DNA of 63,387 nt, the filler included, from Kipferlia bialata (Eukaryota): the NCBI GenBank assembly GCA_003568945.1. It is 5 parts of 5 records of this genome, joined end to end, with 100 filler letters (N's around TTAATTAATTAA, not from the genome) between each part and the next. Parts side by side here need not be neighbours in the genome. Positions count along the whole stretch, not along the records: positions 38,107 to 50,697 come from BDIP01001062.1; 4 more parts are not named here. The stretch is one strand, 5' to 3'. Numbering within the stretch: position 1 is the stretch's first letter; each line of letters starts with the position of its first letter. The translations under genes were made by a program, and so were the position numbers. Shown here one piece after another: positions 26,567-63,200 of this stretch. The notes beneath the pieces were generated by a model that was given only the letters and a program-made list of their open reading frames with translations, did not search any database and was not told the origin of the DNA.

Positions 26567-29500
26567 ATGGCCACTGCAGCCCTCACCCTGCCAGCATACC
26601 TCGGCCCTGACGCCTGTGGGTTCCGCTGTGCTCATGTGGAGCGCATCGATGCTGCTGAGACCGTAGAGATCGTGAAGAGTGCCCTTTCGACTCGTTCTGC
26701 CCAGTGCAAGCTGTGCACAGGTTTGTTTCACTAGTATCTGCCTTCATGGACTATTTTTTATCATATATATGAGATTTGGAGAGAATAGCGTGTGTTGCCT
26801 CGGGGTCAGTATTCCTGTCAGTTCTCCATTCTGTCGCATTTACACAGTACATACCTTATATTATGGCTTCCTAGCCTTCTTGACAGACTTTATGGTGATA
26901 TTGGTGACAAGGGTAGTGTTTCCAGTGTATTCTTCCCCTCTATATGGCTCTTTTGTGATAATATATGTTTGGTACCGGTACCGTTATGACATCACCACTC
27001 TCCCCCACCCGCCCTCTCTCTCTTTCTCTCTTCCCCCCAATACCCGCGCTTATCCTTAGGCACTGGGTCTCTGTGGATCTGCATGCACTGTGGGACTGTG
27101 GTGTGCACAGCATCAGAGGGCAGGTGTGTATACAAGTATGAATGGTACCGGTATCGTCTTACTCTCTACTACGTTGTTGTGTCCCTAACTCCCAGCGAGC
27201 CCTCCCACCTGATCACCCACCTGGCAGACACCCTGACAGACGACATCCACGGCACACACGCACTGTACGTAAGTATGATATATAGTGTATGTCAGAACAT
27301 AGTACCCTCTCTTGCTGTATGTGCCTCTGACACCCAGGTACCTCTCCATCACCACTGGTGCCATATACTGTGCATGCTGTGACCAGGCAGTGCAGTACAC
27401 AGGTACATTGTCTTTCTGTCAGTCTCTCTCTATCACTCTGTCTCAAACGCTGTCTATATACCTCTCTATATTTATGCTGACCATGCAGTGCAGTACACAG
27501 TTGAATTGTCCATCAGTCTCCATCTCTTAGTGTGTATACCTTTCCGACCCACGCTCTGTGACTCAGATACACTGTCTATATTCTTACCTGTGTTTGTTTC
27601 TTGCCTTCCATATATCTCCCTATGCATGATATTGACCTCAGATGTTGTTGAGGCCCCAGCCCATGCCTCTTTCTCTCTCTCTCTGTCTCATATACACTGT
27701 CTATATACGAATGTGTACCTTTTCCGCTGTATGGGTTAATGACCCCAGATGTTGTTGAGACTCCAGCCCATGCCCCAGTCACAGAGGACGGAGAGGAGAA
27801 GGTGTGTGTGTGCTATATAGGCATGTATTTCAATCTGTTTATACCCACTCTATCGGTGCGTCTCACCTTAGCCCCCCATTAGTCCATCTCTCTCTCTCTC
27901 TCCCTCTTACTCTCCCTCACCTCAGCCCCCCTCCATCACCACCAGAGGCATGATTATCAGTGTCAGGCAGATGTGCCAAGGTTAGTAGTATTTGTATGTT
28001 AACCTAAAGTACGTATATTGTATATGTATGTTATAGTATCTGTATGATTGTCAGTATCAGGCAGGTGTGCCAAGGTATCTGGGTCTCTCTCTCTGCATTT
28101 TCCTCACTGTATATAGTCATGTATGCCGCCCCTCTTGAGATAAGTCCCGTACATTTCTCTCTATCTCTTTCCCTTCCTCTATACATATACTACATGTTTG
28201 CTTCATCTCACATCAGAGTCTCGTGCTGCCTCCAAGAGACTGGAGAATGAGAGGAAGAGGACACTCAGAGACGATATCAAGGTATTACATGTCATAGTCA
28301 TGCGTGACTATATACATATACACGATATATGTATATATATGATATATATATATACATGACATTCACATGCCTTTGCGCCTCTGTCTCTCTCTCTCTCTCA
28401 CCCTAGATCAACACCCCCATCCCTGTCCCTGCCTACCTAGTTTCTCAGGGCCAGACAGCGGTGGCACCAGTCACATGTGAGTGTATAGTACTGTACACTT
28501 CAATAGTTATTATGTATTGATGTTGTATCTATCCCTGTACCCTTCCCCTATCTCTTTTACCCCAGCATGTGTCCTCTGCCTCTCATATATATATGTGTGT
28601 TGTTCCCATACTCACTCTAGCCTGTGTCCCCCTGTGCCCTGCCTCTCTGACTGAGGCCGATGCCAAGACACTGGTCAGCCACACATCAATCACTGATGAG
28701 GGTGGAAGGTATACTATTTGTGTTTATATATATATGGTATATATACATATATATATTCCATATATTGAATGAGGAAGGGCGATTAGTCAGCCACACATCA
28801 ATCACTGATGAGGGTGGGAGGTACAGGATATATTTATATGTATTTCATACATGCATGGATGTTTTCAATTGTGTTAGTATCATTGCCACTCATGTTCAGG
28901 ATAGTGCCATATATATGTATATATAGTAGGCATTATATAATGTACCACTCATATTCAGGACCTTCACTGCCATGCAGCGTGACAAGAGACACAAGTCAGG
29001 GGCCAGGTTCACACCCAAGAAGAAGGTATAGATATATATATATATATATATATGGGGGGGAGGGGTGTAAATATTTGTGTATTTGGGTTTGTATCAGACA
29101 CAAGTCAGGGGCTAGGTTCACTCCCAAGAAGATAGTATCAATATATATGGATCACCTCTCTCTTTAGTATTGTAATGCTACACTCTCTCATACTCTGTTC
29201 TTTTCTAAGTCTTAGACCGGTTCCCAGGCCTCTGCACCCCCCACCCCCCCTTCTTTCTCTCTCTCTATGTCTCTATATCTCTATCTAACCCTTAGGCCGG
29301 TGCCAAGGCCTCTACCCCCAAGAAGATGCTCAACCCCCTGGCTAGGTACAGACCCTCGTATATATCTTTCTCTCTCTCTCTCTTTCTACACCCTTACTCG
29401 ATGCTCAACCCCCTGGCAAGGTAAAGACATAGACACTCTCTCTCTCTCTCTCTTTCTACACCCTTACTCGATGCTCAACCCTCTGGCTAGGTACAGACAT

Positions 29501-30536
29501 TCACTCTGTCTCTCTCTCTCTCTCTCTCTCTCTACACCCTTATCTTCAGGGCTGCCCTTTTGGCCAAGCAGAAGAGAGCGGCAGAGGCCCTCGAAGCAGC
29601 AGGTATAGACACATACTTATATGTATATATATATATATATAATATCTGTGTATATATATATATATATAATTGCGAATATGTTGTATTACTCTCTGAACAT
29701 GTATTCTCTTCTCTCTCTCCCTCTACACCCCTAATACCCAGGTGGTGATCCATCCCAGACTGAGGCATCAGAGACAGAGACTAGCCAGAGTGAGTGGTCC
29801 AGTATACATACATTAGTATATATGCTATGTGTGATTGATGAGTGAGAGCAGTCAACCCAGGTCTAGTGGGTATGAATGTGTTAATCCTGTATATGTATTA
29901 TCTCTTATGCCAGGTGAGAGCACGTCCAAGAGGCCCAGTAGTCAGAGAATGGGAGGTACAACATACAACATACATTACATTGTCCTTCTTCACCCGAACT
30001 ACTTTGCCAGATGGATCTGTCTTTCTCCCTCTCTCTCTCTCCCTCTACACCCCTTATACCTCTAGCTCTCTTTGGCCAGATGGCTGTGTCCTCTCTCTCT
30101 CTCTCTCTCTACACCCCTAATGCCCCTAGCTCTCTTTGGCCAGATGGCTGTGTCCTCAGGTGCCAAGAGGAGCAGCATGAAGCTGAACGTCACAGCAGCC
30201 TCACTTAACAAGGTATGATCTATGTGTTAACTGGACCCTTGGTGACAGGACCTCTCTGTGTGTGTGTGTCTCTCTCTCTCTCTGAGTGTGTTCTGTCTCT
30301 GATTCCCAGGCCCTTGGTGACAAGACCTTCAGGTCTCTCTTTCTCTCTTTTTGTATATTTTCATATATATACATATGTTTGTTTACATATATCTAATTCC
30401 CAGGCCCTTGGTGACAAGACCTTGAGGTCTCTCTTTCTCTCTCTGTGTGTATATATGTATATATGTCTCACTCCCAGGCCCTTGGTGACAAGACCCAGCA
30501 GATAGCAGCATGGAGGGCACTCCTCACAGCGGGTAT

Positions 30537-30576
<40 letters not shown>

Positions 30577-31317
30577 ATAATCAGGTATATACTGTGTATG
30601 TATTTACATATATATACTGATATATAGCAGCATGGAGGGCACTGCTCACAGCCGGTCTGACATACATACACTCACACACATATGTATATTTGTTCTCGTA
30701 CTTCTACATACATTGTAAAGGAGTCTAATACCAGGTGCTGTCATGAAGAAGTGTGGCTCCAAGGGCAAGCCCCATCCCAGGCACTTCAGCCTGGACACAG
30801 AGGGAACTAGGTATGTATATATATAGTACTATATTCTCTGTTATGATTATTTTTCAGTACCCGGCAGACTACCATAATAGTGTCCATTGGAGACAGGCTA
30901 TATGTACTATATATGTGTAGACTATAATATCTGTAGTATGTTTATACGATTGATGATTCTAACTCTCAGCATCCACTGGAGACAGGAGAAGAGGCACTCC
31001 TACAAGGAGAAGGATGCCATGCCTATCACAGACATCATCAAGGTACATATGACTTCTCTCTCTCTCCGTCTACACCCCTAATGCATAGCTTGTGCGTGGC
31101 CAGACCACCGAGGTGTTCAAGAGGAGCGTGGACCCTGCTCTGGAGGACAGAGCCTTCAGCGTCATTGGCACAGAGAGGTATAGTATGTACATATATGTGT
31201 GTATACACTTTGTGTCTTCTTCTTACCCTTAGGACCCTCGACCTGTATGCAAAGACAGAGGAGCAGCGGGAGGAGTGGATAGAGGCCATCGAGGGCATGA
31301 TGACAGTGGATATGTAG
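26567..31317 (+). CDS. Protein with N-terminal zf-UBP (BUZ)-like zinc finger and C-terminal PLC-type PH domain
   Basis: N-terminal exons: RCAHV..QCKLCTG|TGSLWICMHCGTVVC..|EPSHLITHL..HGTHAL|YLSITTGAIYCACCDQAV. C-terminal exons: GAVMKKCGSKGKPHPRHFSLDTEGT|SIHWRQ..ITDIIK|LVRGQTTEVFKR..RAFSVIGTER|TLDLYAKTEEQREEWIEAIEGMM. About 20 small exons. Confidence 0.8.
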
Positions 31318-38106: not shown

Positions 38107-38157
<51 letters not shown>

Positions 38158-38159
38158 GA

Positions 38160-40613
38160 GATGCTCAGGCACACCCAGGGCCTTGGCATTGGCCAGGGCC
38201 TGGTATTTAGGGTGTAGAGGGAGATAGAGGTCCTTCACTACTCATCAGTATATATGCACTCATACCTTTGCCTTGTTCTCTCTCATCCTTTGGAATCCCA
38301 GTTGGATGTACTTGACAGAGGTGAAGGCACGAAGCCATGCACCGATAGAGACCTAGGGTTAGTAAACAATAGTAAATGAATATATATATATAGAGAGAGA
38401 GAGATTGATGGGTGAACTGGCCCTAAGCCAGGCACCCATGGATACCTATATATCAGTACTTAAGTATTGATGTAGATAGACAGATACAAGGAGAGAGAGA
38501 GAGACTCACCAGAGCAGAGTGCGGGTTGAGACAGCACACCACTGCATACTATTGTTGTTTGCAGTAGTATATACATATATATAGTGATACACATTCTTAT
38601 AGTAGTGTATACTACTGCTTACCAGGGCACTGTGGGGGTTGAGGCAGCACACCACCGCATACTTGAGTGCCACAGTAGAGTCATTGAAGGCAGTGCCGAG
38701 CATATCCGGCAGCCTAACATTAAGGGTGTAGAGGGAGAGAGAGAGAGAGAGAGACCCATACCTCAGTTTGTGCTTTGGCTTGCCTTTGATATAGAGGGTG
38801 AATATACTAATAATAAGAGACCCATACCTCAGCTTGTGCTTGGGCTTTCCGTTGGCCATGACGGCCTCTCTCTTGTTGGAGGTGCCTATGATAGAGGCGA
38901 GGACCTAGTATTAGACTCTCTCTATATATATATGTGTGTATATACATATATGCATGATGGCCTCTCTCTTGTTGGAGGCAAGGACCTGGGGTTAGACTAT
39001 ATGTAGATAGTATATATTACACATATATGTACGGCAAATGAATGACCTCTCTCTTGGCAAGGACATGAGTTAAGTAGCTGCATATACTATGCCATGTGTA
39101 TATACACATATATGCATATGGCCTGTCTCTTGTTGGACATGACAATGATTGTACTAACAAGGATAGTATACTCTTAGAGGATTTCCTTGTACCTCCACTC
39201 CTGCGTCTATGTTGCCGCATATCAGCACTGCCTCTGCAAATGCAGCATCGGACTCTAGCACAGCAGAGCAGATGCCGGAGAAGACGGGACCAGCGGCCTG
39301 GGGTCACTAATATACTGGTATATTATAGAACTATCTATTCACACATACCTCCAGCCACGTGAGCCTTGTGAATGCCTCCTTTGATACTCCATCTATCTCT
39401 GTCTCTCTCTCTCTCTCTTTATATATATATACAATATATATATATATATACCTCTAGCCACGTGAGCCTTGTGAATGCCTCCTTGAGGATGGGGTACTTG
39501 GCCAGGGGGGTCTGTCTGGGGGGTGAGGAACAGAGATTCTACAGAAGCTATAGAATCTATCATTGTAAGTGTCTATGAATGTATTTCCATACCTCTTCTC
39601 CAGTAAGGGTGTCAGTGCCACCAGCTTGGACACATCCATATCTCTCTCTCTCTATATATATATATACATATATATATACCTCTTCTCTAATAGTGGTGTC
39701 AGTGCCACCAGCTTGGACACATCCATCTTGGCCTGGAGGGCATCCCAGTTCTAGTGGTTAGAGTACACACACACACATATATATATATACAGAGAGAGAG
39801 AGAGATATATAGAGAGAGAGAACATCTTGGCCTGCAGGGCATCCCAGTTCTGGAGTAAGATGTATATGTACATGTATATATACACACACATATATATAGA
39901 TGGAGATAGAGAGAGAGATACCATCCATCTTGGCCTGGAGGGCATCCCAGTTCTGGAGGGGTTAGATATACACACAGACATACACACATGAATATACTAT
40001 GTATGTACCTATCTCTATAACTATATGAGTATTGTATGATGGTATACATCTATACCTGTGCCATGGCATACATGCATGCCGCACTGGAGTGCACTTCTAT
40101 GTCACCCCTCATGACCATGGAGATGAGGTTGAACAGGAGCATAAGGACCTGGAATGAGGGGCTAGAGAGAGAGAGAGAGAGAGAGATACACTCATGTATT
40201 TGAACAGGAGCATAAGGACCTAGAGTGAGAGTGTATGTGTGAGAGAGAGTACAAGTTGATACAGTATATGCGTACTATAGCTATACAATTGCATGTACCT
40301 GTCCATCATATACGTGATACAATAGTTTACATACTACTCTTATTATCTACTCACCTGGAACTGTCCGAATCCAAAGAGTGAGTTTGGGTTGATGGTGCTT
40401 GCCATCACATATATATATATATATACATATATATATGTATACATACATTTACATAGACATTATGGTGTGTATCTACATAACTATTCACAACTCACCTGGA
40501 ACTGTCCGAATCCGAACAAGGAGTTGGGGTTGATTGTGCTGGCCATCATGTGACCAAAGGACTGGGAGAAGATGCCGCTAACGGCTGGCACTGTAAGGGA
40601 GCCATAACCTAGG

Positions 40614-40650
<37 letters not shown>

Positions 40651-40954
40651 TTAAGCCAAGGGGATGGAGCAGATAAGACTAAGAGAATAGGCATACCCTT
40701 CTCCTTGACGAACTGGCCAATACCGTTGGCTAGGAACTTCATCTGACGCTTGACAGAGGCATAGCCTGATAATAAGGGTGTAGAGGGAGAGAATAAGGGG
40801 TGTAGGAGGAGAGAGAGATCGCGACCATCTATGGACACCGAGTATCTATACTCATTGTAGTATAGAAGAATATTCTAAACTATATCTCACTACCTGCGAG
40901 GATTGGGACAGGGAAGTTGGCAAAGTGACCCTCGATCATTCGCACTGGTGTGAG

Positions 40955-40998
<44 letters not shown>

Positions 40999-43900
40999 TC
41001 ATACATACTGGAGTGGGCAGGAGACACTCATACGATAACAGTAATACCTGGTGTAACCAATCCGTAGTCGATGCCTGGTCTGGCCCAGAGCTTGGGGACA
41101 GCATGGTAGCTGGGGGTAAGTGATAGTATATCTATATCTATTAAGCCTCATTAAGTGTTTGCCACTATCTGAACAAAGTAATACGAAACTCACCAGTCCT
41201 CTATGCCCTGTGGCAGTCTCAAGAGGTGCTTGGCACTACATATATGTATAATATATACATACATATATATATATATATGTATTATGTATATACATAGTTC
41301 TCTATACTATTATAGATATCAATTAGATACTCACCCGTCCTCTATGCCCTGTGCCAGTCTCAGCAAGTGCTTAGTACTACATAGTGTGTATATACATATA
41401 CAAACATACATATACATATACATATACATACCCATCTTCTATGCCTTGGGCCAGTCTAAGTAAGTGCTTGGCACTCCTCAGAATGGGGACAGAGGCAGAG
41501 ACAGAGGGAGAGGCATTGACAAGCTGGTATTAAGGGTGTAGAGGGAGAGAGAGAGAGACTCCTCAGTATGGGCACAGAGGCAGAGACAGAGGGAGAGGCA
41601 TTGACAAGCTGGGGTAAAGGGTGTAGAGAGAGAGAGAGAGAGACTCTACACTGTCCACTATAGAGACTCATACCCTCTTTGTCATCTCCTTGAGGTCCTT
41701 CCAGTATGTGTTTCTGTTGGAGTGGGCCAGGTCCTCAGTCAAGGCAGCCTAAGGGTAAGTAGAGAGAGAGATACTCTGAGAGAGAGAGAGAGAGAAAGAG
41801 GAGTGGGCCAGGTCCTCAGTTAAGGCAGCCTAGCAGTGAGATACATATACACACATTCGTGCCTGGCATAATAGAAACAACCATTTGCACGAGCGGAGAG
41901 AGAGAGACTATGAGTATATATATAGTATATTAATACCTCCTGCAAGGGCCCAGTCTCACTGTCGGGACACGCCTTCTGGAACACATCGAGGATCTGTTAT
42001 TAATGGGTGCGGAGAGAGAGAACAATACGATTTAAGGGTGCATGTCATGCACTGCATGAATTTAGGAAATTCAATTTATATCAATTTAGTAAATTCAATT
42101 TACAGTATACTGTCTTGACAACCACTGTACAATATATATATACAATCTATAATATATATAAATGTAATACATATAATAGCATACCTCCAGTGTCAGTGTT
42201 GGCTTGATTGGCCTGCAGTCCAGGAAGGTGTTGGAGGCCTAGAGGGTTAGTATAAAAGAGAGAGAAAGAGAGAGAGAGAGAGAATGAGGGTCTGCAGTCC
42301 AGGAAGGTGTTGGAGGCCTAAGGGTAAGGTAATAAGAGAGAGAGAGAGAGAGCGAGAGACAGATAGACCGTGTTGGAGGAAAAGGACCGTAGCTAACCAA
42401 CAAAAGAGGGAGTGAGAGAGAGCAGGGAAATACCTTGTAGAGCTCCGGCTTGAATGCCACGAAGACCCTCAGCTTGTGCACGGGCTGCTTCAGTCTGGAG
42501 GGTGAGAGAGTAGAAACACAAAGAATGGTATGATTCCCAGCGACATATTATGATATAGTGACTGAGCTTGTGGACAGGCTGCTTCAGTCTGAAAGGTGAG
42601 AAGGGACATATATATATATATATGTGTGTGTAATTAGAGAATACAACACGTACAGGTATGTACATATATAGATATACATATACCCATATATACACCCACC
42701 TGTCCATGTACTTGCCGGTATATATACACGTGTGAGATTGACACACTACACACATACATACACATATGTATGTAAACGTGTATATGAGTACCCCCACCTG
42801 ACCAGGTACTTGCCATACACACTATATACAATGTATATATATATCATTATATATATACAATATATATATCATGTATATATATATACAATATATATATCTA
42901 TTAGAATACATACACTCCCACCTGACCAGGTACTTGCCATACATACACTATATTACATTCATATATTATCAAACATGCCTGACCAGGTACTTGCCGTTCA
43001 GGAAGCATACTACTATATAGTAGATACAAAGAAATATATGGTTATATATATATACATAAATCTAACAAGTATGTACCCCCACCTGACCAGGTACTTGCCG
43101 TTCAGGAAGCTTACTATTGTGTATATANNNNNNNNNNNNNNNNNNNNNNNNNNNNNNNNNNNNNNNNNNNNNNNNNNNNNNNNNNNNNNNNNNNNNNTAT
43201 GTATACGTGTATATAAGTACCCCCACCTGACCAGGTACTTGCCGTTCAGGAACCTGAGCATCTGACCGGGCCTACAGGGTTAGGAAGGGAGAGAAAAGAG
43301 AGTGAGAGGAGGGGAATATTCAATGTGTGTCTCTACCGTCATAGATGATTAGATTAAACAACTCATTAACGCATTGTGTCTCTCCAAGTGTACAGGGTGA
43401 TGACTGTCGAGTATATCAAATGAATGCACACATATCCCATATTGGTTACACATATATACTATAGTATTCAGATAACACTCACTTAGTATTGCGGCCAGTG
43501 TACAGGGTGATGACTCTGTCGAAGAAGTGCTGGGCATCTGCAGTTAGGCTATTCGAAGATTGAACACATATGCATTATATATATATGGTCTATACCGGCT
43601 GTCGGTGCCCCGTTGCTGTGGAATATGATGTGGGCACCGAATATTCATATATATACACATATAAATATTATGCAGTGTAAATAGAGTGTATATACCTGCC
43701 GTTGGCGCCCCGTTGCTGTGGAATATGATGTGGGCACCAGTCTCCAGGGACTTCATGGCAATGGGGAACAGGGCCTAGTATGAGTACACGTACACATATA
43801 TACCTACATATATATCTTACTATATGAACTATTCATCTTAGTGGGCAGGTCCAGGTTGAGCACTGCAATCTGTCCCTCCATATACATGTGGGTATACACT

Positions 43901-46773
43901 ATACTATATCTATATAACTATATATACATGTATACTCTATACTATATATACACATTCATAATAATATATATATATACCTTGGTGGGCAGGTCCAGGTTCA
44001 GCACTGCAATCTGTCCCTCCATATATATGTATACACTATTATATATATACATATATATATATATTACTATATTACTATATATACTGTGTATGCTATACCT
44101 TAGTAGTAAAATATAGTAGTATATACAGTATATAGAATATAGAATAGTATATATAGTATATACAATATACCTTCGTGGGCAGGTCCAGGTTCAGCACTGC
44201 AATCTGGCACTTCTTGCGCATGGCAGCTAGATATCTGGGAATTAGGGTGTAGAGGAGGAGAGAGAGATCTTACGCATGGCAGCCAGGTATCTGGGAATAG
44301 GGAGAGAAAGCGATGGTAGAAAGAGGCAATATTGTCTACTTATGGTGAAGGGTAGCTTAGGGGTATACATATGTGTGCTTAAGAATATATAATTATATAT
44401 ATATACCTCCTGTTGTCTGCACTTGTGTTCTGTGCCTGCAGTCCCTCTAACAGTCCATCCCTCCACATCTGCACACAGGTGGCAACCTATATATTAAAGG
44501 TGTAGAGGGAGAGAGAGAGAATATCTGGACACACGTGGCAACCTGGGCATTAAGGGTGTAGAGGGAGGGAGATAGTGCGCTCCTGAAGCCCATATATACT
44601 AACCTATATCCCCTGCACATTATAGAAACACGGTATGCTCTGCAGGAAGTATATATAATGCAATACTATATATATACATATACATACTATATACATACCT
44701 CTATGCCATGTACATTGTCAAAGAATGGGATGCTCTGTGGGAAGTGCACCGTGGCCATACAGGCACGGACACAGGAGAGGAGGGAAGAATCAACGGAGGG
44801 GAGGGCGCCTATTGTAAGAGGGGGCCACCAACTAAGGAACAATACATAACCCATATAATGCATGTATATACCTGAGTATAGCCACAAGAATGGCTTCATC
44901 TGCTGGTTGGCTGGGAACATGAAGTAGTACTGGCCAGAGGCCATGCCAGCTAGGAACAGGGAGGTAGACAGGGATACATCTGTCATGTCCTACACATTAG
45001 AGAGAGAGAGAGAGAGAAAGACCAGGAGTGACAGTGAGAATAGTGGTCCAGACTAAGAGAGAGAGAGAGGAGAGAGAGAGAGAGATCCACTCACCTCCAC
45101 CCCACACAGCACGTTGACCCTGGCAATCAGGCCCTTGAAGTTGTCCTGAAGGGTGAATAAAGGGTGTAGAGGGAGAGAATAAAGGGTGTAGAGGGAGAGA
45201 GATATCAATGCCATGGAATACAGTAATCCAGAATACATGCATATAATGTACAATAGCAATACTTTCATATATATACAATGTGTATACACTGTATATACAA
45301 TACCTGCTCCGGATGGCTGAAGAACTCGTTGGAGAACAGATAGAGCACAGCAAGGTGGGCACCCCTGGTGACAAGGACCTTCATCTCGGCCTGGGGTTAA
45401 AGGGTGTAGAGGGAGAGACAGATCCTTCACACATGAATATGTATCTCAATATGGACAAGTATATATACCTCCTTGCTCTCATCCCTTGGCAGCACCGTCC
45501 TGATGCTCTGTCTGATCTCAGCCAGTACTGTCTGGACCTCGTCCAGCTCGGGGGAGGGCTCTAACTCCTATCGCGTAAGAAAACCCCTTTCAATAGAATA
45601 CAGTTAAACCGTGCTTCTACAGTCTACAGGCATATTGAATGTAGATGTCAGCGAAACAGGCGCATATGCATATACCCACCTGCAGTAGTGCCTTCTCGTG
45701 TCTCTCCAGGACCCTCATGGTGTTGCCAAGCTCAATGCGCTCAGCCTATGGTTAAGGTATGCAAACATACACACACGCAAGAGACTGTCAGAACCAGTAT
45801 CATGCAACTGAAAGAGTATATAGCGCTATCAATAATGATTGGTAAATACCATACCTTTGCCCTCTTCCAGTATCTCTCCATGGCGCTCATGGCATACATG
45901 GTGAACTGGTATTAAGGGTGTAGAGGGAGAGAGAGAGAATAAGAGAGAGAGAGATGGTACTCATGGCATACTATGGTACACTCTAGTAATTCATATCATG
46001 TATATAAGCTATATACTAAGGGTGTAGACAGAGAGAGAGATACCTGGTTGAACTGTGGCGCACTCTCTGGGTACATGGTGGTCACAGTGTCAAACATCAG
46101 TGCTACTCTAAGTGTCAGAATGAATACACAATACATATACATAAATATGTATATTAATGGGATACTCATTAGAATAACATGATTAATTCTCTGGGTACAT
46201 GGTGGTCACGGTGTCAAACATCAGAGCAACCCTAGGCATAAGATAGGCATAAGAATAGTAGGATTTACAAAAGAATAGGGAGTAATTCATTGGATATGTC
46301 GCCATAACGGTGTCAAACATGAGGGCAACTCTAGGTGTAAGAGAGAGTGATATATAGTGTAATAGTAGACATACACATCTATGTATGTACATTAACGTAC
46401 TGGCTGAAAAAGAACTTGAATGCGTCTGGTGCAATCTTGCGTCCGAAGCGTGACTCTAGGTATCTGTACACACTGTTGGTGGACTGTAACAGTGATCCAA
46501 GTCTGCGGGTCAGAGAGAGCGAGAGAGAGAGACTGTTCGTGGAGTATAACATAGTGAGCCAAGGCTTCTTTAGAAAGTGTACCTTGATGGGTATGCCATA
46601 TTTAGTCCGTGACCCAGTCTGCTAGGGCATATATATATATATATGATATAGTACATATACATACATATATAGTATACTTACATATATATTTACTTATGTA
46701 TATACCTACTAGGGTATGCCATATTAAGTCCGTGACTCAGTCTGCTAGGGTATCCCATGAAAATAATACATAC

Positions 46774-46810
<37 letters not shown>

Positions 46811-47600
46811 CAAGTGTCTATACCTTGATGGGTATGCCATGTTGAGCCCGTGACTCAGCCTGCTAGGGTATATATATGATACAGCATACATACATATATA
46901 TATATCATCAATAGGCATATACCTAGAGGGGTATGCCATATAATACATATATATAATTAATATATATAGACATTGATGAAAATACCTGCTGGGATACGCC
47001 ATGTTGAGCCCGTGACTCAGCCTGCTAGGGGGAGAGTGTCTGGTGGTCACAATGACACCCATGTGCTGGGCTGGGTGTAAATAGGGGTGTAGAGGGAGAG
47101 AGAGAGAGAGAGAGAGAGAAGATACAATGACACCCATGTGCTGGGCTGGGNNNNNNNNGAGAGAGAGAGAGAGAAGATACAATGACACCCATGTGCTGGG
47201 CTGGGTGTAAATAAGGGTGTAGGGGAGGAGAGGGAGGGAGAGAGAGAGAAGTTACAATGACACCCATGTGCTGGGCTGGAGGGTAAATAAGGGTGTAGGG
47301 GAGGAGAGAGAGGGAGAGAGAGAGAAGTTACAATGACACCCATGTGCTGGGCTGGGGGTAAATAAGGGTGTAGAGGGGGAGAGAGAGAGAGAGAAATTAC
47401 AATGACACCCATGTGCTGGGCTGGGTGTAAATGAGGGTGTAGAAAAGGGTGTAGATAGATAGAGAGAGAGAGAGAGAATGTATGTGTATACCTAGCTTCA
47501 TGGTGAGTACAGCTGCATCTGGCTGAGGGAGCACATACTTCTCGCCAAGGGTGAGGTACAACTGACCAAGAGCAGCCCTGGTATTAAGGGTGTAGAGAGA

Positions 47601-47631
<31 letters not shown>

Positions 47632-47869
47632 GTACAACTGACCAAGGGCAGCCCTGGTATTAAGGGGTGTAGAGGTAGAGAGAGAGAGAGACAGAGAGAG
47701 AGGGATAGGTGACCCAGGGCAGTCAAGATAATCAAGTGTAATGATGGATATACATATGTAGATATACACATACCTTGAGAACACGGGTGGGATGAGTCCG
47801 TTGTTGAAGGAGGAGACAGTCTGTCTGAGGACAGCTGAGTCCTTAATCATATCGCCTGGTATTAAGGGT

Positions 47870-47908
<39 letters not shown>

Positions 47909-48670
47909 GGTTAGCTGAGTCCTTGATCATGTCGCCTGGTATTAAGGGTGTAAAAGGGGAGACTGTATAATGTGTACCTGGTGCAGAATCAAATATATTA
48001 TGGGTCTAGAGAGAGAGAGAGAGAGAGGGCTGCTTACCTGGAATGTGCAGCAACACCCTGCTGAAAAGTGTCTCACATATGTTCCCAGATATTCTACACA
48101 CATATTAGTAGTAGTACTACACAATATACATACAATATTTGCTTACCTGGTATATGCAGTAGTACTCTACTGAAGAGTGTCTTCTCACTGGTGAACTTGG
48201 TGGATATGGGGGAGGTGACATCGCCACCGGGGAAGACCTAGAATAAGAGACAAAACACTCAGAGAGAGAGAGAGAGAGATGGGGAAGACCTATAGTGAGT
48301 AAAGCGAGAAAGCAGTCAAGTATCTATGATATGAGAAGTACTCACAGAGTACGAATGCACATACCTTGTATGGTGACACGTTCATCTCAACCCGCTGGCC
48401 CTCCATCTCACTGGGGTTAGAGGGAGGGAAGGAGAGAGAGATTCAACTGTACACTCTATGTACGATACCTATACATGTTAGTATATACGCACTACACACA
48501 CCTCGCCTTGTCCAGGGGCAGTGCCACATGTACTTTCACACATACACCATACTCTCTCTTCCTCTCTACATATGACCCCATAAACTATATGGTATGAACT
48601 ATATGCACACTATACCCACCTAGCCTCATCTAGAGGTAGTGCCACCTGGGCTGGGAGGCCACTAATACTA

Positions 48671-48702
<32 letters not shown>

Positions 48703-49414
48703 CATACTGCATACCTCGCCTCATCTAGAGGTAGTGCCACCTGGGCAGGCAGACCACAGGCAAGGACAATGGCTAGACGGACCAGGGATGCTATCTGGGA
48801 TGGTTAGTATTGAGCGAATACAATAAACGTACAATATTCTATCCTATATGGGATACCTATGTACCAATATATACAACACATACTATTTAACGAGTTCATA
48901 CCTGCTCCTCCTATGTACCATATACTACACTACCTATATATGAAACCTATACATCTATATCAACGATAAGCAATAAAATAACATCACATACTAGTACCTG
49001 CTCCTCGTCGTTCTGGAATGTACTATATACTATACTACATGGGAAAAATGATATATAACTAAGATTAAGATACCTATGTCTCTATTTATATGTAATAATA
49101 CAATCAGATACCTGCTCCTCCTCGTTCTGGAATGACAGAGAGGCCCACACAACCTGGGGGTGAAAAGGGGTGTAGAGAGAGAGAGAGAGAAATATATATA
49201 TATAGAGCTGAGGGTGAAATGGGTGTAGAGGGGGAGAGAGAGAGAGATGACAGTGAGGCCACACAACCTGGGGGTGGAAAGGGGTGTAGAGGGGGAGAGA
49301 GAGGGGAAAGAAATGGCAGTGGCAGTAATCAGGAGATGTACATTGTGTAAACATACACTAATAAACATACATATATACCTGCCGCAATGGAGACTCGTGT
49401 GACTCTGCCACACC

Positions 49415-49467
<53 letters not shown>

Positions 49468-49568
49468 CCTGCTGCAGTGGCGACTCGTGTGACTCTGCCA
49501 CACCCAGACCCCTTCTGATGACATCAAGGTCAACAACTAGCCTGATATTAGGGTATATATATAGGTAT

Positions 49569-49601
<33 letters not shown>

Positions 49602-49960
49602 CCTCTCCTGATGACATCGAGGTCAGCAACAGGCCTGATATTAGGGAACACAATATATATATACAATATTCATATATATATAGAGATAGAGGTACTGTCC
49701 TGATGACACCGACATTCCTGTCTCAACAACTGGCCTATGGTTAGAATACATGTATACTTGTATTTACAATATATGACAATAGGAGAAAGAGAAAGGAGAG
49801 AGGTCCTCCTGATGATATGGTTGTCAAACACTAACACAAGAAATAAGAAGACAAAAGGGGATTCATATACATGTATGTACAATACCTAGGCAGGTATCTC
49901 TCGTGCTGGGATCCAAAGAAGGATGCACTGGAGACAGTGGATATACCTGGGAATTAAGGG

Positions 49961-50001
<41 letters not shown>

Positions 50002-50642
50002 CACTGGAGACAGTGGATAAACCTGGGAATGAGGGTGTAGAGAGGGAAAACGGCATACATTTTCCACATAATAATGGTACACATGTATATGTATAAGAAC
50101 ACTACATATCACTCTGAGCCACGGATAAGTGAACATTTAGAATATTGACTATTTATGATACATTCCACACACATATTATAGTACAATTAATGTATATCAC
50201 TCTGTGCATCGGATGCCACAGTCCTAGTATATACATACTGCACATGACGTGTACATATATATGTATATTAATACACATATATGTATATACTATTACACAT
50301 ATATATAATTTCCATACCGCTCTGTGCCACTGATGCCCCGTCCCAGTTCTCACTCTTGTTGTACCTGGGAATAAGGGTGTAGAGGGAGAGAGAATGTGAA
50401 GATGTTACTGGAGTTACTGCTAGGTGGAGAAAACAGCATCAAGCAATATCAGTACACACTGCTGCCATGGCTGCCCTGTGATTGCATCCTCTCTCTCTAT
50501 ACATATACACACATGATTCTGTATTATATACACTAGTCTCTCTCTCTCTCCATTATATATCTATATCTATACATATCATACGTACACACTGCTGCCCTGA
50601 CTGCCCTGTGAGGCACTGTCCCACTTGTCAGAGCTGCCCTCT
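38160..50642 (-). CDS. Internal part of one very large hypothetical protein split into roughly 40-45 exons of 30-120 nt
   Basis: Splice signals across the contig are on the minus strand and the exons checked join in frame, e.g. AALGQLYLTLGEKYVLPQPDAAVLTMKL, PAQHMGVIVTTRHSPPSRLSHGLNMAYPSR, VALMFDTVTTMYPESAPQFNQ, YLAAMRKKCQIAVLNLDLPTK, YGSLTVPAVSGIFSQSFGHMMASTINPNSLFGFGQFQ. No start or stop seen; family not recognised. Confidence 0.75.
47050..47477 (-). repeat. Tandem array, 6 copies of a ~55-75 nt unit (3' splice cassette + first ~22 nt of an exon)
   Basis: CAATGACACCCATGTGCTGGGCTGG at 47050, 47125, 47180, 47255, 47331 and 47400, most followed by TAAGGGTGTAG..(GA)n; one copy abuts an 8-nt N gap. 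Confidence 0.9.
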
Positions 50643-51027: not shown

Positions 51028-53379
51028 GACAGAGAGCGCGAGTTTGGTGTGAGCATCTCACTCCATGACTTCATCCAGGGCGATGCAAAGGTATCAGTCT
51101 CCCTCTCTCTCACTAGATATGCATATATTTATATATATACTTATATCTTGACTCCATGGTTTCATCCAGGGTGATGCAAAGGTATCAGTCCCTCTCTATC
51201 TCTCTCTATCTCTCTCTTTCTCCACCATGGTCCCCCCTCTCTCCCAGTCTCTCTCTTTTCTTCTCTCCACTTTCTCCCTTCTCAATGCGCCACTTTCTAT
51301 CTCCAGTGTCTATATATTCCAGAGGTCTAGCAGAGCCTGCACAGGAGCTAATCGCCACATCCTCTCTCTCTCTCCCCCCCCCCTTCCAGTCTCTCTCTCT
51401 TACTCCCCTCTTCCCTCATTATCAGAATGGCATCACTAGGTCTGCCTGCCCTGAGCTGACATCCACAGATGAACAGGGGGCAGTGCTCATACGGTATCAT
51501 CAGGCACATAACGCAGGTATGGTCTACATATAGTATATGTGTATATGTGTGTGTATTGTATAAATGTATCCACAAGTGAACAGGGGGCAGTGCTGATAAG
51601 ATACCACCAGGCACATAACGCAGGTACACACTCTACTTATATGGAACTCATATACACTACTATATCTATATATACTACTATTATTCATTCATTCGTGCTG
51701 ATTTGATACCACAGTACACACAATACAGGTACATTGAGGACAAGCGTATATATCATCTCTCTCTCCCCCCGCCCCCCACCCTACCCCAGCGTGTATCCTA
51801 TAGCCCTGTACTTTGTCATCTCAATATTCATCCCCGACTCTCTCTCTCTCTTTCAGTCTCTCCCTCGATGTTAACCCTATGCCTCGTCTACTACTTCCTG
51901 ACCAGACTTACTCTCTCTCTCTCTCTCCCTCTCTTTGGGTCTCTCTCTGTCCCCCACTCTCTATTAGCCCAAGGCCTAGCTTATCATATATACATATTCC
52001 CTGACCAGACACTCTTTCTCTCTCTCTCTCTCTCTCTATTAACTGTAGGCCTAGCCCTCATCATCTCCTACTTCCTGACGAGGTTGGTTGCCAGGGCAGA
52101 CATAGAAGACCAGAGACTGCTGTTGATAGTGTCCAAGGTGTAATCAGTATCCATATGTAGTGTATAGTGTGTATGATATGATTCTATTGTATGTACTATA
52201 TATATCTCTGTCAATAATATTAACATGTATGTAGCACTACTAACCCTCTTGATCCCCAGGGTGACATGGACAAGGACAGTGTGTTCCAGTCCCCTGAGTT
52301 CATACATCATCCGTATATATATATTCTATAGTCTAGTGTATACATATATGTATATATATATATATATAGTATTTTCCTTATATCTAGGGCGATATGGACA
52401 AGGACAGTGTGTTCCAGTCCCCTGAGTTCAGAAGGCTGCCCCCTGCCTTGGCAGACAGAGTGGCAGTATTAGTGATTGAGAGTTTAGACCAGTTGAGGTA
52501 TGTATATATATATGTATATAGATATATATATATATATATATGTACAAATACTTATCCATCTGCCTTTGCAGACAGAGTGGCAGTATTAGTGGAGAGTCTG
52601 GATCAGCTGAGGTAGTATTATATATTCACAGGGCATCTATTGTGGCAGAGCATCTCTCTCTCCCGTACAGACACATAATCCCAGGGCATCATTAGTGGCA
52701 GAGTGGAGACAGAGGCCATCTGTAGTGGGTGTACTCAATGTCCCATCCTTGTATGAGGACTGTAGACCATCTGCTGTGCCAGCCGCAGTGCTCAGCTCAC
52801 TCTCACTCCTCATGAATAGGGCCCCAGGTAACTAGTAGTCCAAGTCACACTATCTGTCTCTATATACATTTAAGAATACCTGTTCTTGTTACACTGTCTA
52901 ACCTCTCAGGCCCCACCTTCCTCTCCATGCCCATGGACACCCAGTTACATACTATGTGTTCTCTCTCAATATGTATTATGTAAAGTATTGAATTATATTG
53001 ATCCATATTCCCCCCTCTTATCTCAGGCCCCACCTTCCTCTCCATGCCCATGGACACCCAGTGGCCAAGTGACGCCTCACAGATGGTATGGTGTCTATGT
53101 TATCACAGAGATATATATTTAGATCTACCCATTTGTCCCCCACCTCTCTGTCATATACTATATATATTCTCTCTCACACAATTTTTTTTTTTTGCCTTTT
53201 CGTCTTACAAGAGTTTTTATGTGGTATACGAATGTGCTGTTACCCTAACCCTCCAGATCCTCCACCTCTGCCATGTATCTCTCCGTGTCTCTCTTTCTCA
53301 CTCCCTCTCTCTCTCTATTCCTATGTAGCATTTGTCCTTAACCATAAGGTCCTCCACCTCTGCTCTGCCACTCCGCATG

Positions 53380-53380
<1 letters not shown>
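51028..53380 (+). CDS. Multi-exon hypothetical protein fragment (tentative alpha/beta fold; weak likeness to SWSAP1-type RecA-fold proteins)
   Basis: In-frame exons EFGVSISLHDFIQGDAK|SACPELTSTDEQGAVLIRYHQAHNA|GLALIISYFLTRLVARADIEDQRLLLIVSK|GDMDKDSVFQSPEFRRLPPALADRVAVLVIESLDQLR|ASLVAEWRQRPSVVGVLNVPSLY... Coding status is good; the family guess is weak. Confidence 0.55.
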
Positions 53381-53432
<52 letters not shown>

Positions 53433-53444
53433 TAATCCCTACCT

Positions 53445-56584: not shown

Positions 56585-58909
56585 ATGGGTCTGTTCTCAT
56601 GCTGCACAAAGGGGGACACAGGTATAATTGATATTTAGGTTTACATATATATATATATCATGTGATGTATAATGTGTGAGTATAGTGTATGTATAGTGTA
56701 GATGCATATTCTCATGCTGCACAAAGGGGGAGACAGGTATAGATGTATCACAGTTATATAGTATGTATGTATATTGTATGTACGCAATATATATTTTTAA
56801 AGAAGGAACTATTAGAATAGTATATGTAAGGTACATTCTTATAATAGTACTACTCTATCTGTTTGTATGTGTCTATCTGTTTGAATCTCTCTGATTATCT
56901 CACTCTCTTACCACCAGGCCGTGCCCCCCTGGCAGAGTATATACATGCATTATACATATCTATCTATATACTAATTGGTCCTACATAGTATGTGAATCAT
57001 TGTGTCTCACCCCTAGGCCGTGCCCCCCTGGCACATGACACAGAGACAGGAGGTACATAGTATACATACCCTTGAGTATATGTAGTAGTGTATGGTGGAT
57101 AGTTACAGTGTATATCTATTAACCACTGGCACATGACACAGAGACAGGAGGTACATACACACTCACACACACACACATATATATATGAATATGGTATATA
57201 GTATAGTGTATATCTATTAACCACTGGCACANNNNNNNNNTGAATATGGTATATAGTATAGTGTATATCTATTAACCACTGGCACATGACACAGAGACAG
57301 GAGGTGGGGGATAGTATAGATAGATGATTGTATACGTGTATATATGTATATATTTAGTAGTACTATATATTCTCTATGTGTATATACCCCTGGCACATGA
57401 CACAGAGTCAGGAGGTGGGGGATAGTATATATTGTGTATATATATTTGTAGTAATTTCATTGTGTATATGCCCCCCCTGGCAGATTACACAGAGTCAGGA
57501 GGTAGGAGATATACTATGTATGTTTCACTCTTACATACACATTTTTATATGGCGGAAGTTGGAGTGTACTTCATATAGTACCAGACATGTGGCCATACAT
57601 ATTAGTCACTCTCATTCTCTCTCTCTCTCCCCTTACCCTACACATACTCCCTCTAGAGATTATAATCTATCTCTCTATCTCTCTCTGTGTCTACATCTAT
57701 ATATACAGTTTTTATACACACATGTGTATCTATACCCCTTTACCCTAGACATGCTGCCCCTAGAGATTATGGTCTCTCTCTCTCTCTCTGTATCTCTCTC
57801 TCTATATATATCTATAAATGTGTGTATATATATGTACATCCCTCTTACCCTAGACATGCTCCCCCTGGAGGTTGAGGGTCAGGGTGAGGGCCAGACACAG
57901 ACATGGGATGAGGGAGGTATGTATACATATTTACATAAATATATAGATATATGCATATGTATCACTTAGATTATCCCTTACTGTAGGTGAGATACAGACA
58001 TGGGATGAGGGAGGTATATATAGATATATGCATATATATGTATATACATCAGTTAGATAGACCCTTACTGTAGGCCAGACCTCTGCATGGGATGAGGGTG
58101 TGACCCCATTACCCATGTCACCCAGGACACCGGACATGGGGGCATATAGCACAGGTATTATATACTATTTACACACTCATATGTATGTATGTATACACTT
58201 ATATAGATATACATGTATAGACCGGACGTGTGTGCATACAGCACAGGCACTTCTATTACTCTCTACCCATCACCGTATCTTTTGCTAATTGAGTATATTG
58301 GTAATATTGATTATATATATAGTGTTTTTACGCGGCCTCCTCAATTGCGGGGTATTGGAGACACTGTCCCTACATTGTTGTTCCATTATATTACTCCAGC
58401 CCCTCAGATATCGATTGTTCAGCCAGTAGTAGTGGCCGGAGGCATAGACCCTGTATCATAATGTATTTACTATATATTCTATATATCCTATTCTTTGATA
58501 TCTCACCCTAGCCCCTCAAGTCACCCAGTCTGCCATGGCCAGAGGCATACCCTCTGCACCATAGTACATTATACCATATGTATACTAATACAACTATATA
58601 CCTATTCTCTCTTTTGTATCTCACTCTAGCCCCTCAAATCCCCCCTCACCCTGTCCTGGCCAGAGGCATACCCTCTGTACCCTTCCCACCCACATTCGAC
58701 TCCATCTGTGGGTCAGACTTCAGGTATATGTGATAGTGCTCTCTTTCTCTCTCTCTCTACATCCTTTATTTGGAGCGTGTGTTCCCTCTATGTATGTCCT
58801 TTTCTCTCTCTCTCCTCACCTCAGTGTACCACCCTTGCCCTTGACACTGTTGAGCCACATAGGTACATGGTAATATATACACCCACATGTATATATGTTA
58901 CTTGATTTA

Positions 58910-60332: not shown

Positions 60333-63200
60333 CACCCTTATACCAGACAGACTGCTGTCCCAGGTGGGCGTGAGGTCCCATCTAGTCCAGAGTCTCTCTC
60401 TCACTCTCCCTCTCACCCTACCTCTTTCCAAGACAGCCGGCGTGGCAAGGGACACCGGGAGAGAGAGAGAGTCCTCGGACAGTTGGACACACAAGGTATC
60501 AATGCTAAGTGTGTCCAGATAATTTACGACTTTATGAAAGTCACTATATGACTTTATAGAAGTCACTTTTACCAGTTACCATGTATTGAGCGATGTTTAG
60601 TGTGTCCGTATAGTCTAACCCAGCTCTCGTGAGGGTGTAGTATATATATACATATACAGTGGATTATTATTATATCCATATATAGTTATATATAATACTT
60701 GTCCTCTCCACCCCTAATACCCCCAGGTCTGGTGAGGGTATATTGTGTATATATACCTCATGGTGGTTTACGTGTATATACATCAATAGTGATGCTTTGT
60801 TGTTTACGTGTTTACCGTGCCTATAGATATATAGTATCCTCTACCCCAGGTCTGGTGAGGGTGTTGAGAGAGCACACAACCGGAAAGGCCACACGCTCTT
60901 TGGAGGGGGAGGAAGAGAGAGAGATGGACACTCTCCCCACCAGGAAGGGGTGTCTATTATACACGGAGGCTGAGGTGGGTGTGCATAGGTATATATTGAC
61001 ATTAATGTGTATATGTATTAGTATACCCTACATATACATATATATACCCACCAGGAAGGGTTGTCTGTTGTACACAGAGGCAGAGGTAATGGTAGTGTAT
61101 ATATAGGGAGAGATAGAGAGAGAGAGAGAGAGAGAGATCGTTACTGTTGTGCACTGAGCCAAGAGTATAGTGATTATGTGTATCCATACAAACCGATATA
61201 CACTTGTAAACCCTCATCCTCACCTTATCAGATCCACATCCGTGCTGGCGAGTGTCTGACTGAGTGTCCAGCATACATGGCACACGGGGTCACATTGCAA
61301 GCAGGTATTATATAGTGTGAGTATATGTTCTATCTAGGGAGGTTTTGTAACATGTGGAGTATATATAGTATATGAATATTAATTATCTGATGTGTCCGAC
61401 TGAGTGTCCAGCATACATGGAGCACGGGGTCACATTGCAAGCAGGTATACAAAATATATATATTGTATATATAGTGTATATTTAATACTCCATACTCCAC
61501 ATTGTGGTCTGATACCAGGCACCGTTGTGCCCGTACGTGCAGTCCGTAACTGTATTAAGTATACTATACTATATATATTTATGTAACTATATGGTGTGTT
61601 ATTATAGTAGTGTCTGATACCAGGCACCGTAGTGCCCGTACGTGCAGTCCGTGCAGTGTATGACGAACAGGCGGTAGAGGGTACAGAGGGAGATGATGAT
61701 CACCTCCTATTTGATCTTGAGGTGAGGCATTATCTGTCTCTCTCTCTCTCTCCCTCTAGACCCTTAATACCAGGTCCCTTATGGCCTTGTCTCTGTGTCT
61801 CCCCCCCTTTGCCACAGACTCTTTGGCGCATGCTTCACCCTGGAGTACCTCTCTCCCTCTCTCTCTGCCTCTGCACCGTATGGAGTGAGTATGGAGACAT
61901 GTATAGCGCCCCTTGTATCTAAGAGAAGAGAGAGAGAGAAAGAGGGTATAGTGTCAAGAGGCAGTCTTAGTGGTGAAGGAGAGAGGGAGAGAGAGAGAGA
62001 GGGCCGGTCTGTCGAGGTGGCCACAGTCATGATGGCACAGCCAGGTGATGATAACTATACTATACTATATATGTATTTATATACATGGAGAGAGAGAGAG
62101 CATGTTGCCACAGTCATGATGGCACAGCCGGGTGTGTTGTATAGTTATATGATATATATATTGTATATATATAGAGAGAGAGAGAGAAAAATGTTTCTCT
62201 TTGTATACATATACATTATATATTATATGGCCACAGTCATGATGGTACAGCCAGGTATATATATATATGAAAATTTATACTGATATACTGATATCTGTGT
62301 GGGAGCCAATCTCACCCCCAGGCCAGCTAGCCGTGTCTCTCTTCTCCGACCCCACCCAGACACCCTGTCTGTCAAGGCTCAGGCTGAGGTATATATATAT
62401 ATAGTGTATATATAGTTAATATAGTATCTATAGAACTTACAATGTAATATTCTATGTATACTATTATATATTATAATTGTATATAGTATAGTGTACCACT
62501 CAGACACCGTGTCTGTCAAGGCTCAGGCTGAGGTATGGATGGTATGTGTATATGCACAATCTGTGTATATGCACAATCTGTGTATATCCACAATCTGTGT
62601 ATATCCACAATCTGTGTATATCCACAATCTGTGTATATGCACAATCTGTGTATATACTACTATAATATATATAATATAGTAATAATATAATAATTATATA
62701 ATAATATATATTAATCTGACCCCCAGGGGCTCCCACTTTGTGCACTCCCTCAGTGAGGACAGGAAGTATGTCAGGTATGCATATGCTTATATATTTATGT
62801 ATCCCAAATAGACTATGATATGATGTGTTCATATAATAGTTTTTATCTACCAGACAGGAAGTATATCAGGTATAGTAATGACAATACTACTACTACAATA
62901 TTCTGCCATTATTCAACTACTGGTAACTGTTCACTCCCGGAGGAACAGGAAGTGTGTCGTATATATATATATTACATACTTAAGTATGTGTATGACTGTA
63001 TCTATGCTGACCCCAGGTCCCCTGACCTGCACCTATACCCATATACATATATATATACCCATATATATATGTGCGTGTGTATATATCAATACATACGTGT
63101 ATATATACGTAACTATATATAATATATATACTGACCCCAGGTCCCCTGACCTGCACCTGAGCCTGGACGTGCCAGATCCATATGTGAGTGTGTATAGTAT
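56585..63200 (+). CDS. Calpain-like (peptidase C2 fold) pseudoprotease with N-terminal MGLFSCC acylation motif; 3' truncated
   Basis: Spliced: MGLFSCCTKGDTG.., PFPPTFDSI, GAQWQS, METLRCRSPYLAGILSL, VFLLHDRGQRVPVSVDTMLP|VDSDRMPFLFR..DYFLPFLLKAL|AVHYGSYAAVYHAPVETLLYTL|YGCVS, TLQAGTVVPVRAV, LLFDLE|VPYG. Collinear with calpain FPP..SL, W.RP, QG.LGDCW.LAA, V.VDD.LP, W..LLEKAYAKL.GSYEAL, GHAYSV, RNPWG. Confidence 0.75.
62554..62655 (+). repeat. Intronic minisatellite, 6 x 17 nt (SCACAATCTGTGTATAT)
   Basis: Six direct copies differing only at the first base. Confidence 0.92.

Follow-up and report, generated by a model that had tools for sequence, protein, structure and literature searches.

We analysed a stretch of 63,387 nucleotides (nt) of Kipferlia bialata DNA (the window), made up of five scaffolds of about 12.6 kb each linked by Ns, in which partial copies of exons, here called half-copies, lie in the introns beside the exons that they resemble. 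The main host gene, KIPB_004798 (protein P0121; 1022 amino acids, 42 exons), occupies positions 38173..50640 on the minus strand; its annotated protein maps exactly onto its scaffold, is partial at both scaffold ends, and gave no Pfam family and no usable Atlas match. Half-copies were counted over 87 exons of seven gene models on three scaffolds, with the exons of scaffolds 1 and 2 and the eIF6-like, G-beta-like and transketolase genes outside this census. Reading frames came from annotated proteins (P0121, P0122 and P0123 for the four pairs of a preliminary description of this DNA) or from hand annotation, as for a 20-exon gene on contig 3 (26567..31317, plus strand) and a minus-strand gene at 55211-53443. 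Within P0122, the part at about 58997-60495 looks unreliable and was left out, and some later exon ends were set by hand; P0124 and P0125 were dropped as low-complexity repeat matches. The available portions of the genome paper describe a short-read, microsatellite-rich assembly with 124,912 GT-AG introns and k-mer peaks that suggest diploidy, and contain no mention of exon copies (PMC5874029).

Half-exon copies and their geometry

A frame-blind search anchored at exon ends found 85 half-copies adjoining 52 of the 87 exons, and 3966 control scans of distant introns gave no match. A half-copy adjoins 27 of the 42 exons of the main gene. All 85 pairs are adjacent and in direct orientation, each copy having one end in the exon sequence and the other in the intron. 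The 36 copies of exon starts (5′ halves) all lie upstream of their exon and the 49 copies of exon ends (3′ halves) all lie downstream; matches on the wrong side numbered four in 174 scans and are near-whole copies of two exons of 36-37 nt. Each copy is anchored at a single splice site rather than at acceptor and donor together, and the splice dinucleotide (AG or GT) is kept in 77 of 83 copies, two start-codon copies being set aside. The preliminary description had reported 3′ halves with a donor and no acceptor; the 5′ halves (36/85) are their mirror image, with the acceptor kept and the donor missing. Copy spacing showed no bias to multiples of 3. A single split as the common origin of an exon's 5′ and 3′ halves found no support (6 of 9 abut within 8 nt, p = 0.06-0.25).

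One limit of the homology is the splice signal, and the other lies near a microsatellite. The (CT)n tracts end 24 of the 36 5′ halves (background 14%), and the (TA)n tracts begin 31 of the 49 3′ halves (background 29%). Beyond the splice signal, the identical run into the intron is 3.2-4.3 nt at donors, compared with 3.4 nt for unrelated donors, and 5.0-5.8 nt at acceptors, compared with 3.0 nt; the intron interior is 37% identical and alignable mainly in a few arrays. In a dead, self-templated duplicate the intron part should be as alike as the silent sites, which it is not here. If the splice site of a copy were used, a frame shift or stop would follow in 68 of 77 cases, and an in-register GT...AG exists in only 5 of the 85 pairs. 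Copy donors score below used donors (1.3 versus 2.7, p = 0.008), and copy acceptors score equal to used sites. An annotation-free scan gave 3, 1, 31, 202 and 167 raw, overlapping matches on scaffolds 1-5, whose dinucleotide repeat content is 1.0, 1.3, 5.1, 12.6 and 10.2%. Single half-copies also occur in the microsatellite-poor scaffolds, at 7354-7441 and 15149-15223; one of the two sits in a kinase gene, which by eye we take to be casein kinase 2 alpha.

Silent bias, outward decay and transcripts

The difference between exon and copy is strongly silent-biased, not silent-only. Over the 85 pairs, 138 codons differ silently and 47 by replacement, two of the replacements being stops, which contradicts the earlier claim that the copies diverge only at synonymous sites. 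Twenty-four pairs are identical, 31 differ by silent changes only and 30 contain at least one replacement, so that the same peptide is encoded by 55 of the 85 copies. Differences fall at codon positions 1, 2 and 3 in the proportion 40/18/154. The proportion of silent sites that differ (pS) is 0.21-0.26 overall and 0.27-0.33 in the main gene. The ratio of replacement to silent divergence (dN/dS), which had been proposed as an unbiased, genome-wide check and was obtained here on the 87 exons, is 0.105-0.144 over all pairs, the range reflecting the weight given to transitions, and 0.065-0.093 in the main gene; a dead, self-templated duplicate was expected to show at least 0.5. We compared these values with 480 simulated runs of dead duplicates passed through the identical detection. 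Replacement codons make up 25% of the observed changes, versus a mean of 58-64% in the simulations (lowest run 46%), and 13 pairs carry at least three silent and no replacement changes, versus at most three in the simulations. When only the nearest copy on each side is counted, the ratio of silent to replacement codons is 107:35.

Silent changes are symmetric (58 GC-to-AT, 57 AT-to-GC), even though GC makes up 39% of introns and 70% of third positions. In ten synonymous codon pairs two or three bases differ, and three of these pairs cross between the serine boxes. The symmetry and the serine switches are best read as marks of sequences that coded. By parsimony, in exons with at least two copies, changes on the copy branches number 23 silent to 12 replacement (p ≤ 1e-4 versus neutral decay, which predicts about 30% silent). 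The low dN/dS and the silent-leaning copy branches both point to protein-level selection, past or present, on the copies, as the preliminary description had proposed.

Where copies are stacked, the quality of the coding sequence declines with distance from the exon. In 12 multi-copy stacks, the nearest copies carry 21 silent to 1 replacement codons in 368 nt and the farthest 23 to 11 in 323 nt (Fisher p = 0.018), an equal silent load with a rising replacement load; seven stacks worsen outward, four are tied and one is reversed. The ratio of silent to replacement codons is 5:8 in copies without GT or AG and 133:39 in the rest (p = 0.005), silent and replacement densities are uncorrelated (rho = -0.04, 83 pairs), and the replacements are not conservative (p = 0.20), all of which is expected of later decay. 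On the plain reading of these sequences, copies would arrive already silent-diverged beside the exon and then be pushed outward and decay. Some stacks hold at least three different versions of one exon.

The individual pairs illustrate this range. The four pairs of the preliminary description carry 7, 6, 5 and 5 nt differences in the cores first aligned, and all 23 are silent, as it had reported. The first joins exon 40496..40608 (minus strand, YGSL...FGQFQ), over which an RNA contig matches 40494-40606 with 0 other letters, to a 53-nt 3′ half-copy at 40355..40407 (minus) with seven differences in six codons; this copy keeps its GT and starts in a (TA)n tract, and none of the RNA contigs on 38121-41230 lies on it. 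The second exon, 41432..41523 (minus, LVNA...QGIED), has its nearest 3′ half-copy at 41335..41372 (minus; 6 silent, 0 replacement codons), a farther one at 41194..41237 (minus; 5 silent, 2 replacement), and a 5′ half-copy at 41558..41608 (minus) that keeps its AG, differs at two silent codons and ends in (CT)n. In the third pair, the annotated P0123 exon 51426..51516 (plus, NGIT...HQAHNA) faces a 3′ half-copy at 51568..51623 (plus) with four silent codons (5 nt) and one replacement codon; the core first described, 51578-51623, is indeed silent but was cut short, since homology reaches 51568 and includes an Asp/Ser replacement. In the fourth, the annotated P0122 exon 60850..60974 (plus, LVRV...YTEAE) has a 3′ half-copy at 61047..61085 (plus; 5 silent, 0 replacement) that starts in a (TA)n tract. 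The GT was said to be kept in each of the four copies, which holds, and an acceptor to be missing, which needs one correction: the copy at 61047 contains an internal acceptor-like AG that the gene finder reads as an exon start.

Further pairs in the main gene, all on the minus strand, include the 3′ half-copy of exon 48237-48147 at 48038..48073, in which 8 of 36 nt differ, all silently, in seven codons, and that of exon 38713-38623 at 38510..38550, with five silent codons and an AGT/TCT serine switch. Three stacked 3′ half-copies of exon 47070-46986 lie within 46583..46868 (46868-46824, 46750-46706 and 46627-46583) and show, outward, 4:0, 8:0 and 8:1 silent to replacement codons; a serine codon that reads AGC in the exon has become TCA, AGT and TCA in the three copies. 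One copy of this exon is a mosaic whose 5′ part resembles the exon and whose 3′ part resembles the farthest copy, which indicates that exchange among copies or donors occurs. Upstream of the same exon, five identical 22-nt 5′ half-copies (47124..47420) have alignable intron parts and form a recent self-templated array. Decay is advanced in the 3′ half-copy of exon 44808-44699 at 44604..44650, which has five silent and five replacement codons, including a stop. On the plus strand, the four stacked 3′ half-copies of exon 57017-57052 (57126..57501) have no silent changes, and their replacement codons number 0, 0, 1 and 3 with growing distance from the exon, a neutral-looking decay.

We compared contigs from two runs, X1 (presumably DNA) and X2 (presumably RNA), with positions 38121-41230. 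Because X1 may be the source of the window itself, it serves as a check of the assembly rather than as an independent sample. The eight longest DNA pieces show 0 other letters at depths of 373-421, with a depth of 421 on copy 40355-40407 and 418 on its exon. One unbroken DNA contig spans exon 38713-38623 and its copy, and a second leads out of the 40355 copy and into its (TA)n tract. A haplotype chimera would place a copy behind its own 5′ half; the 40355 copy adjoins (TA)n instead, which argues against a chimera, and as far as the contigs show the assembly chimera named earlier as a possible refutation is not seen. No in-register collapse of exon and copy appears in the 15 of 31 DNA joints listed. 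Among the RNA contigs, one of 4516 bases skips the introns and covers eight listed exons at the offsets that the model gives, with 0 other letters. The main RNA contig shows the letters of the full exon in all five testable pairs (40496, 38828, 38623, 38266 and, in a loose end, 41432); contigs drop rare RNA forms, so this result applies to the dominant transcript, in which the RNA-level route suggested earlier finds no support. At exon 39750-39680, bin depths place an RNA contig on 23 nt of the 5′ copy (39952-39922) and 36 nt of the 3′ copy (39639-39593), the exon itself lying among skipped repeats, which makes the case unreadable either way.

Within 38265-38550, a further DNA contig, at depth 430, and a second RNA record match parts of two exons, at 38306-38343 and in the copy at 38508-38542, with a likeness of at least 85% before departing from them in protein. 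The main gene thus apparently has a paralog with its own copy of the same exon end, a locus pieced together from joints, loose ends and bin depths, not letters.

Origin of the half-copies

We give slightly better than even odds (a probability of roughly 0.55) to the reading that the half-copies are once-working halves of other alleles, left by repair from a diverged homologous chromosome that was closed off-register at a microsatellite. The data show how the copies are arranged, that they have an excess of silent changes and decay outward, that their free ends lie at microsatellites and that the main transcript contains the full exon; the donor alleles, chromosome breaks, repair enzymes and exon definition of the scheme that follows are inferred. 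A broken end in or near an exon would pair with the homolog inside the exon, because exons would be the sole stretches still alike between the alleles; Dmc1, the only main recombinase of fornicates, would tolerate the mismatched pairing. Copying would then start in the middle of the exon, cross the splice site, enter the intron of the donor and halt in (TA)n or (CT)n, where end joining, probably by Pol theta, would tie the new strand to the other broken end untrimmed. An off-register crossover between alleles would give the same picture and is indistinguishable here. The outcome would be one complete exon and one surplus half, either a 3′ half with its GT downstream or a 5′ half with its AG upstream. 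Since both versions would have coded until the capture, they would differ at silent sites, and in both directions. Later events would insert beside the exon and push older halves outward, where they would decay neutrally, and events templated by the sister chromatid would give identical copies. The spliceosome would ignore the halves through exon definition, since two splice sites at short distance from each other are found in the full exon alone; the broken frames and stops that use of a copy site would bring mean that toleration of the copies needs a unit with both sites to be chosen. A fit of the donor distance did not separate a fixed from an exponentially spread value.

The evidence for the enzymes named in this scheme comes from the literature and not from the DNA analysed. 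According to the available parts of PMC8516963, metamonads lack nonhomologous end joining (NHEJ), fornicates lack Rad51A and K. bialata lacks both, and its supplementary entries for this species include Dmc1 (four), Spo11, PolQ, Msh2 and XPF; a recombinase and Pol theta are thus present where NHEJ is absent. Mismatched triplets are stabilised by Dmc1, as reported in the accessible part of PMC6719624. Among the three routes of the preliminary description, divergent alleles joined by unequal recombination fit best.

Several points weigh against capture from alleles. Copies of one exon are not independent, and 107 of the 138 silent codons come from the main gene alone (107:21 silent to replacement); the other six gene models together give 31:26 (p = 0.003-0.04), and two of them, the contig-3 gene (7:8) and one contig-5 gene (1:7), are like dead duplicates. 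In the contig-3 gene, with 12 half-copies, dN/dS is 0.29-0.36 and not significantly different from that of dead duplicates. Four of the seven gene models were partly or wholly annotated by hand. Junction microhomology is weak (in-phase, at least two bases, in 3 of 11; p = 0.02), and several copies share identical exon parts yet have unrelated intron flanks, so that very fast intron turnover would be needed. The required silent distance (pS 0.21-0.33) is at or above the highest published within-species value that we found, 0.20 in Schizophyllum, which the part of PMC4576712 available calls extraordinary; hybrids of distant lineages may therefore be needed. No second allele appeared in the DNA contigs on 38121-41230, which show one version of most exons at a likeness of at least 85% and no other letters in the tables, although diploidy is suggested by the genome paper (PMC5874029). 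Finally, since the main gene has an apparent paralog, the donors need not be alleles.

It is also conceivable, although we think it unlikely, that the nearest copy is under present coding selection, with the exon half joined to the spare half by homology-guided joining, without a GT-AG pair, in few transcripts or in rearranged DNA copies, and that a copy is released to decay once a newer one intervenes. Present use fits the sequence patterns equally well and has no need for divergent alleles: it explains the kept splice signals, the symmetric silent changes, the serine switches and the contrast between clean nearest and decayed farthest copies, and the apparent second locus with a copy of the same exon end could hold an old, kept copy. 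The main RNA contig, however, is colinear with the model and contains full exons with exon letters in every testable pair, and the rarity of an in-register GT...AG and the weaker donors of the copies likewise speak against their use. We know of no mechanism for homology-guided joining of exon halves.

Capture of the same kind with donors that are paralogs or a lost second subgenome, rather than population alleles, seems to us distinctly improbable. The silent excess is strongest in the sole gene for which a second locus is seen, which is in favor of paralogous donors. Against them, the contig that holds copy 40355-40407 is unbroken and of single depth, and no second locus matches there; stacks contain three or more different versions of one exon, and clean silent-only copies also occur in contig-5 genes, whose searches gave no paralog. 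Routes that we have not thought of keep a small share of the probability.

The preliminary description had also suggested that copies swap into the exon by repeat collapse or gene conversion. We regard it as very unlikely that self-made tandem duplicates are kept coding-competent by second-order selection of this kind, even though the mosaic among the stacked copies of exon 47070-46986 is in its favor. Silent differences would arise at 2u and be removed at 2c, and replacements at u and c, which would yield a dN/dS of 0.5-1; a silent divergence of about 0.3 would need c to be near u, and selection through conversion would be too weak. If conversion were so frequent that selection could act on a dead copy, the silent differences would be lost, and the DNA joints listed hold no in-register collapse.

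That the copies are ordinary dead tandem duplicates, their silent bias due to hand-picking or to interleaved haplotypes or strains in the assembly, is the least probable account, despite the picked cores of the earlier work (one trimmed before a replacement), the 7:8 and 1:7 gene models, the short-read, microsatellite-rich nature of the assembly (PMC5874029, as far as available) and the possibility that X1 is the window's own source, because the bias holds in the frame-blind search and against same-detection simulations and separately built contigs hold exon and copy at equal depth (373-421 in the eight longest DNA pieces).

Known systems and other features of the window

The half-copies resemble templated insertions and microhomology tandem duplications, the products of repair that starts as homologous recombination and is completed by microhomology end joining, in being short direct duplications with one low-complexity end. 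They differ in numbering about one copy per exon, each straddling one splice junction, and in consisting of two functional-looking versions rather than one copied template; the enzymes of such repair are listed for K. bialata in the available parts of PMC8516963. Kept splice signals, purifying selection, neighbouring versions and unrelated introns are features shared with mutually exclusive exons of the Dscam type, whereas the copies here have one splice site, encode the same peptide and were not seen in the main transcript in the five testable pairs. When an intron is gained by tandem duplication across an AG/GT proto-splice site, duplicated exon sequence likewise comes to lie inside an intron, but no new intron is formed here (as the few in-register GT...AG pairs show) and the old exon stays whole. 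The silent donor cassettes of antigenic variation and the avian immunoglobulin pseudogenes are likewise unexpressed partial copies with intact frames, next to a copy that is expressed; they vary the protein, whereas the K. bialata copies keep it the same and occur in unrelated genes. As in the programmed DNA elimination of ciliates with pointers, direct repeats flank AT-rich spacers whose removal would rebuild the exon. In K. bialata, by contrast, the whole exon is present, the long DNA form stands at full depth and the messenger RNA (mRNA) reads the first copy; an elimination-type joined form is absent from the DNA joints listed.

We found no description of such copies in the literature searched (titles and the starts of abstracts, with subscription journals mostly outside it), and the passages available of PMC6679479, PMC3488318 and PMC9097270 contain no precedent. 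As far as searched, the parts of the mechanism are known and the dense, ordered series of once-coding half exons is undescribed. If capture from alleles is correct, the genome of one free-living metamonad would hold an ordered record of past alleles, about one per exon in microsatellite-rich genes, from which diversity could be estimated in a single isolate. The sequence itself would then be evidence that very distant haplotypes have exchanged DNA in a lineage whose sexuality is an open question, and the copies would be a visible cost of repair by Dmc1 and Pol theta without Rad51A or NHEJ. The copies would also point to exon definition in a reduced spliceosome, for which 87 of 174 proteins were found according to the available part of PMC6679479, and half-copies would be a source of intron growth. 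If the copies reach mRNA instead, they would represent a new mechanism, an undescribed route of mRNA assembly in a eukaryote.

The copies also carry a warning for annotation, as gene finders turn them into false exons: the P0122 model counts two half-copies as exons (61412-61444 and 61519-61545), with duplicated peptides as the result. A WDEG peptide is repeated in three consecutive annotated exons (57854-58154), and 57987-58013 is a whole copy of a 27-nt exon with both splice sites; the half-copy process may also give rise to additional exons and to repeats in proteins. For exon 58630-58723, two 5′ copies (58400-58560) have an open frame with length changes that stay in frame and with many amino-acid differences, as earlier versions of a protein that evolves fast would have. 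In-frame 3-nt gaps are also present at 52560-52611 and 62928-62958.

An identical 20-base intron end, consisting of a pyrimidine tract, branch point and AG, precedes four unrelated exons of the minus strand (41524-41543, 45906-45925, 47578-47597 and 47856-47875), where chance predicts none. Eight further near-matches exist, on two scaffolds in all, and over one copy the DNA depths add up to about 68,000. The 3′ ends of introns seem to have spread from one intron to other, unrelated ones, in the manner of a small mobile element or by ectopic conversion. This shared acceptor motif was rejected as a driver of the 5′ copies (8/25 versus 14/55, p = 0.59), and a scan of metagenome contigs with the motif and P0121 gave no Kipferlia-like loci. 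The motif also lies reversed inside annotated plus-strand exons at 59135-59190 and about 59380-59400, where it encodes KGVEGE-like peptides; this reflects either inverted insertions or a wrong gene model.

Other genes in the window include a DEAD-box helicase-like frame at 2-940 and a transketolase with one intron at 35047-37187. Among the genes at 25517-25984, 26428-26500 and 31830-32600 are an eIF6-like gene, a G-beta-like gene, both labels being our assumption by eye, and tRNA-Ala(CGC). The contig-3 gene at 26567..31317 has weak matches to zf-UBP and PH, in single exons and below the Pfam cut-offs, and the middle of P0122 has a weak calpain match, also below the cut-off. At 53330-53450, a plus-strand and a minus-strand gene both end mid-structure at one (CT)n(TA)n tract; two loci have probably been joined in error there, at a palindromic repeat.

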